Shown piece after piece: positions 32,331 through 35,430 of a stretch of 35,430 nt of DNA (the first letter of the stretch is position 1; each line of letters opens with the position of its first letter). Location of the stretch: the IMG/VR virus record IMGVR_UViG_2923302340_000005, positions 1 through 35,430 of that record; one strand, 5' to 3'. A program made the position numbers and the translations under genes. Source of the stretch: a virus. Taxonomy: Duplodnaviria > Heunggongvirae > Uroviricota > Caudoviricetes. Below the pieces are notes generated by a model. The model was not told the origin of the DNA. It searched no databases and saw only the letters and a list, made by a program, of their open reading frames with translations.

Positions 32331-32487
32331 AGCTTCAGCCCCTTGTATCCGTTAAATGATTCGGCAACAATCATCACCCACCACGCGCGTAATCTCACCC
32401 CTGCGCCGTTCTCCCGCCACGGCGACAACAAAAAGCAGTAACCCCCTCCGCACGCACATGCGACCATGCCACACAAGGAGGGAGCAG

Positions 32488-33597
32488 ATGACCGACACCA
32501 CCATGCAATTGCTCAGTCAGGGCACAGACCCCGTGAAAATGCCGGATTTTGATATTCTCGCGGAGGGTAAAACGCTGTCAGGCGTGGCAGAGCGCCTGAT
32601 GAGCCTGTCACTGACCGACAACCGGGGATTTGAGGCGGACCAGCTCACCATCACGCTGGATGATGCGGATGGTCAGTTGCAGCTACCGCCACGGGGCGCG
32701 CGCCTGACGGTTCTCATTGGCTGGAAAGGCGAACCGCTGACAGAAAAAGGCACTTACATTGTTGATGAAATCGCTCACGAAGGACCGCCGGACAGGCTGA
32801 CTGTTTCAGCCAGAAGCGCAGATTTTCGGGATGAATTTAACGTTAAACGTGAGGTGTCCTGGCATGATGTGACCGTTGAGCGTGTGGTATCCGCCATCGC
32901 TCATCGGTACGGTCTGAAACCGCAAATCAGCGAAATGCTGATGGATATCGAAATCGACCACGCCGACCAGACCGAAGAAAGCGACATGTCCTTTCTTACG
33001 CGCATGGCGGAAATGCTGGGCGCAATCACCACGGTAAAAAGCGGTAATCTGTTATTCATTATGCCAGGCAGTGGCGTGAACGCACAGGGCCAGCCGTTGC
33101 CATCGTTCGCCATCACGCGCAGCAGTGGCGATCGCCATCAGTTCCGCATTGCTGACCGCGAAGCGTATACGGGGGTACGCGCTTACTGGCTTGATCTTAA
33201 TTACGGGAAAAAGAAAAAAGTCAGCGTGAAACGCCGCAAACCGCCAAAAACCAAAAAGGAGAAAAGCAGCAGCCGTGAAGGTGATTATATGGAAGGCGCG
33301 GAAGGCAATGTGTTTGTGTTACGCAAGACTTATCAGAACGAACAGGCAGCAAGACGCGCAGCGGCGGCAAAGTGGCAGCAGCTACAACGCGGAGCCGCAT
33401 CATTCTCCATCACGCTGGCACGTGGTCGTGCAGAACTCTACCCCGAAATGCATGGCACGGTAACAGGATTTAAAAGCGAGATTGATAATCAGGACTGGAT
33501 TATTGCAAAAGCCGAGCACATCATTGATAACAGCGGCTTTACCACGCAGCTTGAGCTTGAGGCAAAAATCCCGGAATGGATAGCAGAAACAGACTGA
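32488..33597 (+). CDS. D: Tail / late control protein, P2 gpD-like
   Basis: Start ATG 32488 behind AAGGAGGGAG (track ORF starts at 32356); matches P2 gpD (LSLTDNRGFEADQL.I.LDD.DGQ..LP.RGA, GWKG). Confidence 0.8.
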   Translation: MTDTTMQLLSQGTDPVKMPDFDILAEGKTLSGVAERLMSLSLTDNRGFEADQLTITLDDADGQLQLPPRGARLTVLIGWKGEPLTEKGTYIVDEIAHEGPPDRLTVSARSADFRDEFNVKREVSWHDVTVERVVSAIAHRYGLKPQISEMLMDIEIDHADQTEESDMSFLTRMAEMLGAITTVKSGNLLFIMPGSGVNAQGQPLPSFAITRSSGDRHQFRIADREAYTGVRAYWLDLNYGKKKKVSVKRRKPPKTKKEKSSSREGDYMEGAEGNVFVLRKTYQNEQAARRAAAAKWQQLQRGAASFSITLARGRAELYPEMHGTVTGFKSEIDNQDWIIAKAEHIIDNSGFTTQLELEAKIPEWIAETD

Positions 33598-33639
33598 ACA
33601 ACTTAGAATAGCGCCAGCACCACGTTAAGGGAGGTCGCT

Positions 33640-33900
33640 ATGTTCCGTTGTCCGCTTTGTGGCGCATCTGCCCGTATCCGCACCAGTCGTCCGGAAAATG
33701 ATTCAAACACCGTGCGGCAAAAGTATTACCAGTGTAACAACCTGGAATGCGGCGTATGCTTCTCAACACTGGAAGCCTTCCATAAATTCACATCAAAACA
33801 CGCCTCCGGCGTTCACTCTTCAGAAGGTATCCCGTGGCATGAGCTGCCAGCTTCACACAGGGGAAACAATCAGATGAGTTTGCCTTTACCTCAGAATTAA
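33640..33900 (+). CDS. ogr: Ogr/Delta-family zinc-finger late transcription activator
   Basis: 86 aa; MF.CPLC...AR.RTSR......Y.QC.N..C matches the Ogr CxxC...CxxC zinc finger; last gene of the phage backbone; AAGGGAGG RBS. Confidence 0.8.
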   Translation: MFRCPLCGASARIRTSRPENDSNTVRQKYYQCNNLECGVCFSTLEAFHKFTSKHASGVHSSEGIPWHELPASHRGNNQMSLPLPQN

Positions 33901-33988
33901 CAGGCAGAATTGCCGGAGTAACAAAAAAGCGATAGATTACGCGCGGGTGCCTTTCGGCTGATGGTCGGAGGGAATACCCGAAGGCCAG

Positions 33989-34225
33989 ATGTGGAAAGGC
34001 CCCGGAAAACATTTCTGTTTAACCGAGGCCCTAACACTTCTTACCTTCGCAAGTAGAAGGTTAGCGCCTCTCCTCTCAGGAGACAAGCGTTATGACGCAA
34101 ATTCCGTTAAAAACCCTGTTACTTTGCATAACTGCGGTAGCGATAATCTGGATCCTCCACACATCACCGTGCGAGTTACGATTCAGGTTTGCTGGCACGG
34201 AAATTGCGGCATTCTTACTATGTAA
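33989..34225 (+). CDS. Mok-like overlapping reading frame (putative)
   Basis: 78-aa ORF in a different frame that spans the hok-like gene, as mok does in hok/sok loci; no independent support. Confidence 0.3.
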   Translation: MWKGPGKHFCLTEALTLLTFASRRLAPLLSGDKRYDANSVKNPVTLHNCGSDNLDPPHITVRVTIQVCWHGNCGILTM

Positions 34226-34232
34226 TAAGTAA
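34092..34232 (+). CDS. hok: Hok/Gef-family type I toxin (46 aa)
   Basis: Not in the ORF track. AGGAG 9 nt upstream of ATG 34092; translation MTQIPLKTLLLCITAVAIIWILHTSPCELRFRFAGTEIAAFLLCNK has the Hok signature: hydrophobic helix with CxT, then CE(L/V)R.R....E(I/V)AAF..C. Confidence 0.75.
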   Translation: MTQIPLKTLLLCITAVAIIWILHTSPCELRFRFAGTEIAAFLLCNK

Positions 34233-34319
34233 GATAACCGCGACGGGGGAGTAATCCCCCGTCAATCGGTTGCTAAGGTTGGTCGAAACGGCACCCTATC
34301 TCACAGACATGAACAACAA

Positions 34320-34353
34320 ACCCGCAGCGTAAAAACTGCGGGTTTTCTTTTTG
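34320..34353 (+). terminator. Rho-independent terminator at the 3' end of the hok-like transcript
   Basis: Stem CCCGCAG / CTGCGGG followed by TTTTCTTTTT; a second hairpin GGTGCCCTC / GAGGGCACC lies at 34354-34376. Confidence 0.6.
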
Positions 34354-34481
34354 GTGCCCTCACAAATGAGGGCACCATACATAAGCAATAGGCATAACAG
34401 ATCGATGCAATAAATCCGATCGATAAAAACGATCGATTTGCTATCATATCGGCAGCAGTAACCACACAAGAGGTGCCGCAA

Positions 34482-34679
34482 ATGACGCAAAATGTACGAT
34501 GCAAAAATTGCAACAAACTACTTGCCCGCGCCTCATTTCACTACATTGAAATAAAATGTCCGCGCTGCAAAACACTTAACCAGATAACGAGAGCCATCGA
34601 GCACCCCACACACATGAGGAGTTATGACCGTGGGGATCGCAATCCAGCACCAACCAGCACATACACCGGAACACACTAA
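34482..34679 (+). CDS. com: Com-like zinc-finger protein (Mu Com family)
   Basis: 65 aa from ATG 34482 (track starts at GTG 34473); RCKNCNKLL...HYIEIKCPRCK is nearly identical to the Mu Com zinc finger as I recall it; 3' end overlaps the methyltransferase start by 56 nt. Confidence 0.75.
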   Translation: MTQNVRCKNCNKLLARASFHYIEIKCPRCKTLNQITRAIEHPTHMRSYDRGDRNPAPTSTYTGTH

Positions 34680-35430
34680 GGTTTATCAGACTGACAATGC
34701 CACGCTCTGTCGTGGGAATGCGCTGGAAATATTGCCGCTGATTGAGCCAGAAAGCATTGATGCCTTAATCACTGACCCGCCTTACAGTTCGGGCGCGACA
34801 CACAAGGCCGGACGCACCAACCAGGGCAGCCATGCAAAATATCTGAACGGCGAGAACCTTCACCGCTTTGATGGGTTCGCGGGTGAAAACATGGACGCCC
34901 GTTCGTGGGCTTACTGGACACAATTATGGATGGCACAGGCACACCGCGCAGTCAGGCCGGGCGGTTATGCCCTGGTATTTACTGACTGGCGACAACTACC
35001 AGCTTTAACCGATGCGTTTCAGGCCAGTGGCTTTACATGGCGCGGCATCATTGCGTGGAACAAGGGGAGGGGGTCACGAACACCACATACCGGGTATTTC
35101 CGGCATCAGTGCGAATACATCGTCTGGGGCAGCAAAGGCCATTTAGATAAATCGCCTTCGGGACCGTTCGACGGCTGCATGACGTTCCCAGTTATCCCGT
35201 CAAAGAAAATGCACCCGACCGGAAAACCAGAAGAACTAATGGCGGAACTGGTCAGGACTGTGAATAGTGGCGGAACAGTCCTTGATCCTTTTATGGGGTC
35301 AGGGACAACGGGTGTGGCTGCACTGAAAGCAGGGCGAAAATTTATTGGTATAGAAACCAGTGATCATTATTTTGAGGTAGCAGCGCAGCGGCTTCGGGGG
35401 ACTATTACCACAACCATTTCGGCTACATAA
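34624..35430 (+). CDS. DNA methyltransferase, beta-class amino-methyltransferase (N6-adenine or N4-cytosine)
   Basis: 268 aa, complete (TAA at 35428-35430); motif IV DPPY (ITDPPYSS) precedes motif I (FMGSGTTG), the beta-class order; GAGGA RBS. Confidence 0.8.
   Translation: MTVGIAIQHQPAHTPEHTKVYQTDNATLCRGNALEILPLIEPESIDALITDPPYSSGATHKAGRTNQGSHAKYLNGENLHRFDGFAGENMDARSWAYWTQLWMAQAHRAVRPGGYALVFTDWRQLPALTDAFQASGFTWRGIIAWNKGRGSRTPHTGYFRHQCEYIVWGSKGHLDKSPSGPFDGCMTFPVIPSKKMHPTGKPEELMAELVRTVNSGGTVLDPFMGSGTTGVAALKAGRKFIGIETSDHYFEVAAQRLRGTITTTISAT

Follow-up and report, generated by a model that had tools for sequence, protein, structure and literature searches.

A com-methyltransferase gene pair in a P88-like prophage with the predicted elements of a Mu-type translational switch

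In bacteriophage Mu, Com is an RNA-binding translational activator that is essential for translation of mom (PMC6483171, PMC3378877). The stretch of 35,430 nucleotides analysed here (hereafter the window) is a P88-like prophage (Xuanwuvirus, P2 family); it begins at the integrase gene (minus strand, 1-1023) and closes with the stop codon of its last gene. This last gene, whose stop codon is the final triplet of the window, encodes a DNA methyltransferase, and its start is overlapped by a com homologue on the same strand. The question raised by this arrangement is whether Com governs the translation of the methylase as it governs that of mom in Mu, where the element is transposable rather than P2-like and the cargo is a different one. 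The best explanation for the features described below is that com and the methylase gene form a bicistronic operon, which the prophage carries at its right end as accessory cargo and which works like Mu com-mom.

The com and methylase genes and their place in the prophage

The com gene specifies a zinc ribbon with cysteines at positions 7, 10, 26 and 29 that matches Pfam family PF10122 (Zn_ribbon_Com) with a score of 44.6 bits (E 9.5e-12), where the cut-off is 22.9. Like Mu Com the protein is a CCCC ribbon, and over the finger the two are identical at 25 of 42 positions (60%), with the stretches RCKNCNKLL and CPRCK unchanged; the initial annotation, which called them almost identical, thus overstated the resemblance. 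RefSeq lists the product (WP_001353016) as a 'Com family DNA-binding transcriptional regulator', a name that is probably wrong.

The methylase matches PF01555 (N6_N4_Mtase) at 116 bits (E 2.7e-33), and this match, together with that of Com, bears out the proposal that a beta-class enzyme here takes the place of mom, whose product belongs to PF25680. DPPY lies near the N-terminus (residue 49) and FMGSG near the C-terminus (residue 221), which is the beta-class motif order, with motif IV before motif I. As motif IV of an amino-methyltransferase DPPY points to N6-adenine, and going by this motif the enzyme is most likely an N6-adenine methyltransferase. Its scores fall far under the curated NCBIfam cut-offs for CcrM (88 versus 830), PRK11524 (YhdJ; 77.5 versus 292) and NF010253 (101 versus 244), so that specificity is not transferable from any of these; the nearest solved structures are DpnA-type enzymes (5hek and 5hfj) and CcrM (6pbd), at E ~1e-20. 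Identity with the non-specific E. coli methylases M.EcoGII, a 349-aa protein of another prophage (PMC5778455), and M.EcoGIX, which is plasmid-borne (PMC7736820), was rejected, and M.EcoGI, also non-specific, was dropped as a lead, the window enzyme being far below the nearest NCBIfam cut-offs. No restriction gene lies next to the methylase, which has hok upstream and, in the matching E. coli chromosome, attR and raiA downstream; the enzyme is an orphan, as had been supposed.

Relatives of the methylase are found without com. An 81%-identical enzyme (L170, 2151-3295) directly follows ogr in another P2-like E. coli prophage, beside a zntA-like gene, with neither com nor hok; its probable start is a TTG preceded by GGAG. 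A 62%-identical enzyme (L167-L169, 2307-3786) is encoded without com in Salmonella Mu-like prophages, with GemA and Mor upstream, between the holin and lysozyme genes, a placement that is an alternative route to late-only expression of a phage methylase. A com gene is likewise absent upstream of a 41%-identical homologue in a Burkholderia P2-like phage. The com-less 81%- and 62%-identical enzymes indicate that the methylase has no intrinsic need of Com, and the L170 enzyme that methylase and Com cassette are independent modules.

Two in-frame start codons, ATG 34624 and GTG 34630, are available to the methylase, and from the sequence the second is the likely one. It is favoured by its spacing from the Shine-Dalgarno sequence, 8 rather than 2 nt, as in L119 (AAGGAG, 8 nt, GTG) and in Mu (GGAG, 7 nt, GUG), and by its position in the 3' arm of a helix, where the GUG of Mu mom also sits. 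In addition, GUG is the only start of a 76%-identical methylase behind the same cassette in L119, and P0001, which with 1486 sequences is the largest cluster in the database, begins with this codon. The overlap of 56 nt that had been annotated between com and the methylase holds if ATG 34624 is used and becomes 50 nt from the likelier GTG 34630; with the latter start the +1-frame overlap of the downstream gene is 50 nt in both the window and Mu.

Among 5426 complete E. coli genomes, about 170 (~3%) carry near-identical copies of the pair (98-99.6% at the DNA level), and phage Chuche has them too, a recurrence which argues that the juxtaposition did not arise by chance. In E. coli ETEC4069 the matching DNA is 99.6% identical and is followed directly by raiA, which makes the com-methylase module the last cargo before attR. 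Escherichia phage Chuche (PP925824), an isolate, encodes at this site, between ogr/hok and attP/int, the same Com and a methylase 97% identical to that of the window, and this placement puts the module inside the phage genome, not past its end. Of the earlier placement at or beyond the right end of the prophage, the former part therefore stands and the latter does not.

The suggestion that the pair forms one compact module with hok fares no better. A terminator separates hok from com and the methylase gene (Table 1), ogr and hok are present with com and methylase absent in P88, PhiR44_2, Shae_phiSM and 520873, and the L170 methylase has neither companion; hok, com and methylase are thus separable units. 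The hok/sok locus is common to P88-like phages without com and methylase. Its sok part matched Rfam over 33945-34103 at 47.4 bits, under the gathering score of 59, and was the sole near-gathering match in a scan of 33500-35430 (E<=1), in which no family covered the com/methylase junction. A perfect 10-bp inverted repeat (34353-34377, GGTGCCCTCA-caaa-TGAGGGCACC) separates the hok terminator from the com promoter. Near-identical relatives have it, have a variant of it or lack it, L002, L086 and L094 being without it; it could represent a small insertion element or serve to bind a protein.

Table 1. Features of the right end of the prophage (window coordinates)
Feature	Position	Strand	Details
gpD	32356-33597		
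ogr	33640-33900		Ogr_Delta, E 5e-14
hok/sok locus	33945-34232		
hok-family toxin ORF	34092-34232		HOK_GEF, E 2.5e-8
Intrinsic terminator closing the hok unit	34318..34352	+	10-bp stem then T-run; upstream boundary of the com-methylase unit
Putative Dam/OxyR-type control region	34388..34437	.	three GATCGAT sites at 34400, 34418 and 34431; spacing 18 and 13 bp
Predicted sigma-70 promoter	34420..34447	+	-35 TCGATA, 16-bp spacer, extended -10 TGcTATCAT (34439-34447)
com	34482..34679	+	65 aa, Com-family CCCC zinc ribbon; SD AAGAGG 34468-34473
Candidate Com-binding RNA hairpin	34591..34604	+	gagc[CAUCGA]gcac; CC-N3-GAG in loop, C-G closing, one A.A stem mismatch
Predicted translation-inhibition stem-loop	34604..34635	+	outer helix CCCCAC (34604-09)/GUGGGG (34630-35); inner CAUGA/UUAUG
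Shine-Dalgarno sequence of methylase	34616..34621	+	GAGGAG; 8 nt before GTG 34630, 2 nt before ATG 34624
Beta-class DNA amino-methyltransferase	34624..35430	+	268 aa from ATG 34624; 266 aa from GTG 34630

Control elements upstream of com and at the gene junction

Upstream of com lie three GATCGAT sites whose spacing of 18 and 13 bp exactly repeats that of the three GATCs ahead of com in Mu; nowhere else in the 35-kb window is there such a triple or a GATCGAT 7-mer. The stretch comprising GATC cluster, com and start-codon helix aligns with the sequence of Mu (alignment A1), with a gap in the window and its relatives opposite ~21 nt of Mu between the third GATC and the -10 element. We take the three GATCs of Mu to be its Dam/OxyR switch sites, an assignment that reportedly goes back to Bolker and Kahmann in 1989 and to Hattman and Sun in 1997, and the missing ~21-nt segment to be the site of the C activator. 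An OxyR consensus is matched at 15 of 20 positions in the window and at 13 of 20 in Mu, against a background maximum of 14.

Whereas Mu Pmom is governed by Dam, OxyR and C (PMC3378877), the window is without the C-activator segment and has a predicted promoter with an extended -10, whose TGnTATCAT element is kept in relatives including L119. Within the 250 nt upstream of com we found no TTAT-N-ATAA site or Mu C-type half-site, and no P2 Ogr-type late promoter element (TGT-N12-ACA). Control of the com promoter by Dam and OxyR is plausible from its sequence. Because the predicted promoter looks activator-independent, late-only timing of expression is not accounted for, which counts against a switch of the Mu type.

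In Mu, Com recognises CC(N)2-3GAG presented in a loop with a closing C-G pair, and a translation-inhibition structure whose stem holds the mom GUG start lies immediately 3' of the Com element, in the region GAAUGCCUGCGAGCAUCCCACGGAG (PMC6483171). The window shares GAGCAYCCCAC with this Mu Com target, and GCC-N3-GAGCAYCCCAC occurs in it a single time. As in Mu, a candidate Com hairpin is followed directly by a helix predicted to sequester the start codon (GAGCAYCCCAC ... GUGGG). The two sites differ in that the hairpin of the window has a mismatched stem, the A.A mismatch making it weak, and in that its stem-loop is longer and, taken alone, more stable than that of Mu (-13.2 versus -8.7 kcal/mol). 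A different Com hairpin seen in the MFE fold, CGA[GAGCCA]UCG, was rejected, as L129-type relatives are unable to form it.

In the predicted stem-loop the apical tetraloop is the GGAG of the Shine-Dalgarno sequence, and AUG 34624 and GUG 34630 both lie in paired positions. The 66-nt region folds at -17.5 kcal/mol (z = -2.4), with 2 of 200 shuffles equally stable. When a transcript of 306 nt was modelled, all six pairs of the outer helix formed with probabilities of 0.99-1.0, both start codons have a probability of being unpaired of 0.00, and the GGAG is partly accessible (0.68). A fold of the mRNA over 34600-34640 had been put forward as a check on Com control, and its outcome agrees with that proposal: the stem-loop at 34604-34635 is predicted to pair both candidate starts with a probability of at least 0.99 and adjoins the Com-motif hairpin. 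The outer helix CCCCAC/GUGGGG is also found in L119, L008 and L129, its Mu equivalent being CCCAC/GUGGG, and it is unchanged in all members of the window's clade while adjacent positions vary. The inner helix CAUGA/UUAUG was rejected as a conserved feature, since it is missing in L109 and L116.

Com loci with other cargo

We fetched 160 loci encoding relatives of Com. The gene after com belongs to at least five unrelated families of DNA-modification enzyme, namely Mom, D12/Dam-class, beta-class N6_N4, C5-cytosine methylase and Hia5/Hin1523; the loci also include one Neisseria group and a few uncoupled cases. Com homologues of Clostridia followed by genes for proteins of 711-805 aa, and that of L083 followed by AspRS, were judged uncoupled on the grounds of terminator-like hairpins, or the absence of a Com motif, between the two genes.

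That Com can precede a methylase other than Mom is already published, for FluMu, Pnme1, H. aegyptius and Pseudomonas phage B3. The first three carry a com homologue ahead of a non-Mom DNA adenine methyltransferase (hin1523, nma1821, hia5) at the mom position (Drozdz et al. 2012, PMC3299994), and that paper also credits Morgan et al. 2002 with noting Com sites 5' of hin1523. These loci resemble the window in having com followed by a non-Mom methylase and in combining a hairpin with a start-codon helix. They differ from it in their Mu-like prophage hosts, in that the comHia and hia5 ORFs do not overlap, and in the enzymes themselves: Hia5, Hin1523 and Nma1821 are Dam-related and non-specific for m6A, with motif I before a DPPY at about residue 194 (PMC3299994), whereas the window encodes a beta-class enzyme that BLAST assigns to another family. 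In B3, as in the window, the com gene (ORF47) overlaps the start of a methyltransferase (ORF48, annotated as DNA adenine methylase), but ORF48 is D12/Dam-class (PF02086, putative activity) and the pair lies amid the tail genes of a Mu-like siphovirus.

Closer to the window by family is Stenotrophomonas phage Smp131 (P2 family), in which a 'translational regulator' overlaps a methyltransferase, a pair known from annotation only. The gene pair of the window is itself already annotated in GenBank and RefSeq, and that of Chuche is entered as 'gpCom control of modification' and 'DNA methyltransferase'. In the literature we found no analysis of RNA elements or promoter for the Chuche and Smp131 pairs, nothing specific on P2-like phages with Com, on the Pfam name or on the RefSeq entries WP_000215751 and WP_001353016, and no description of the P2-family beta-class version, its RNA elements or its retained GATC triple.

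Several lines of evidence indicate that the two RNA elements are conserved across com loci. The Com hairpin lies 25-45 nt upstream of the cargo start. In its 37 distinct versions 93% of cells are paired, against 76% in column shuffles, and 35 double-sided changes are seen where 11.7 are expected; the covariation score is reached by 0 of 500 shuffles, with the proviso that hairpin extraction demanded two inner pairs and the free test is therefore of the two outer pairs only. The 9 unpaired cells belong to the window's own enterobacterial clade, with an A.A or C.A mismatch. Perfect 4-bp hairpins were found in 46% of real regions and 0.5% of decoys.

Start-codon helices of -7 kcal/mol or lower are present in 53% of 70 distinct cassettes as compared with 8.5% of 2792 decoy AUG/GUG codons; since the cassettes are mutually related and not phylogenetically independent, the p-value for sequestration is inflated, and the real evidence is the diversity of helix solutions, with at least 10 different helix sequences sequestering the start codon. 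In L054 and related FluMu-type loci, for example, the Com hairpin is accompanied by the start-codon helix GCCAUAG/CUAUGGC. Between L012 (GCCAUGAG..CUCAUGGC) and L049 (GCCACGAG..CUCGUGGC) there is a compensatory swap from AUG/CAU to GUG/CAC that includes the start codon. With both Mu Com target elements present in the window, and with this architecture conserved and covarying in distant com loci, the Com-dependent translational control put forward in the initial annotation gains support, all of it at the level of sequence.

The loci L012 (2599-2636, Marinomonas) and L049 (2602-2642, Vreelandella) encode Com and a Dam-class methylase, and in both the Com recognition motif doubles as the 5' arm of the helix, a change of start codon (AUG versus GUG) going with a change of motif (CAU versus CAC). 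With such a helix arm, binding of Com and occlusion of the start codon would compete directly.

A near-identical enterobacterial cassette (gcGCCaNNGAGCACCCCAC..aagga..GUGGGGaac) lies upstream of Mom, C5 and beta-class cargo. GTGGGG(AAC) is common to the beta-methylase, C5-methylase and Mom cargo, and judging from these sequences the recombination joint appears to lie just past the 3' arm of the helix, at GTGGGG(AAC). In L008, L131 and L151-L156 (com at ~2501) enterobacterial cassettes with the CCCCAC/GUGGGG helix stand ahead of a C5-cytosine methyltransferase (PF00145) and after tail-fibre genes; we found no published description of Com-gated C5 methylases. The chances seem to us evenly balanced that Dam/OxyR-type promoter, com, Com hairpin and start-codon helix together make up a portable expression gate, one that would have repeatedly captured unrelated DNA-modification enzymes (Mom, Dam-class, beta-class, C5 and Hia5-type) while moving among Mu-like, P2-like and other phages.

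A Mu-type switch and its alternatives

We consider it probable that the pair is a switch of the Mu type, in which Com binds the hairpin and opens the start-codon helix, such that an orphan adenine methylase is made and protects progeny DNA. Besides the unexplained timing, the com-less relatives of the enzyme, the weak hairpin of the window and the loss of the inner helix in L109 and L116 weigh against this reading. Transcription would proceed from the sigma-70 promoter with its extended -10; as the three Dam sites, in an OxyR-like site, overlap the -35 and spacer, use of this promoter would probably follow the state of Dam methylation, as at Mu Pmom. Com would be translated off its own ribosome-binding site, and the start region of the methylase, inside the 3' part of com, would be shut in the stem-loop, with its start codon, most likely GUG 34630, base-paired. 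The Com zinc ribbon would bind the small hairpin just 5' of the stem-loop by way of the CC-N3-GAG loop, whereupon the stem-loop would open and ribosomes initiate. The DPPY beta-class methylase, most likely acting on N6-adenine, would then methylate replicating phage DNA, and progeny would reach the next host already protected against restriction, an anti-restriction role that we infer by analogy.

The same arrangement of genes might instead reflect translational coupling in cis, with ribosomes that translate com unwinding 34604-34635 and the Com protein dispensable or auxiliary only. The start region lies 50-56 nt within com, so that each com-translating ribosome must melt the helix, and the imperfect Com hairpin of the window also speaks for such a mechanism. 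Pure coupling, however, needs no Com-motif hairpin, yet a conserved and covarying one stands at constant spacing from the start in loci with unrelated cargo. Moreover, the comHia and hia5 ORFs do not overlap (232-348 and 413-1255; PMC3299994), FluMu-type loci such as L054 keep both hairpin and start-codon helix, and Mu cannot do without Com, an RNA-binding protein, in the translation of mom (PMC6483171, PMC3378877). We therefore regard coupling as an unlikely account of the locus.

Constitutive translation of the methylase from AUG 34624 or GUG 34630, independent of Com, would require that the stem-loop be too weak in vivo and com a relic. Close homologues function in other prophages without com, and the GGAG in the apical loop is partly accessible; yet com is intact, the outer helix is invariant in the whole clade while its neighbours vary, and the predicted ensemble leaves neither start codon unpaired, all of which makes this reading quite improbable. 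That Com is a DNA-binding transcription factor acting on the promoter, and not on translation, is suggested by the RefSeq product name and by a single sentence in PMC3299994, according to which the promoter is positively regulated by Com. We give this hardly any credence, as the experiments on Mu Com revealed RNA binding and translational activation (PMC6483171, PMC3378877) and what is conserved and covaries is RNA structure at the start codon of the downstream gene.

A Mu-type switch in this position bears on what the methylase may do. The Com-gated genes of Mu, Haemophilus and Neisseria prophages, mom among them, encode unusually promiscuous, host-toxic enzymes, and Hia5, a non-specific m6A methylase, was proposed by its authors for use as a research tool (PMC3299994). 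By analogy with these enzymes, the Com-gated beta-class methylase, carried by ~3% of the complete E. coli genomes, may reasonably be suspected of countering restriction with broad specificity; as a rule its gene would not be expressed, and routine methylome surveys of lysogens would hence overlook it. As of 2019 no structure of a Com-RNA complex had been determined (PMC6483171), and a second natural version of the switch, differing in its stem-loop and in the mismatch of its hairpin, could help to define what Com recognises. If the portable gate is real, com would flag phage genes for promiscuous or toxic DNA modifiers, including cargo families without a Pfam assignment.

Two points concern the annotation of the window. 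The start of the methylase gene is probably to be placed at GTG 34630. The gpD ORF as mechanically listed carries a long low-complexity N-terminal extension (MIRQQSSPTTRV...), and, going by its relatives, the true start of gpD is probably near the methionine of MTDTTMQLL.
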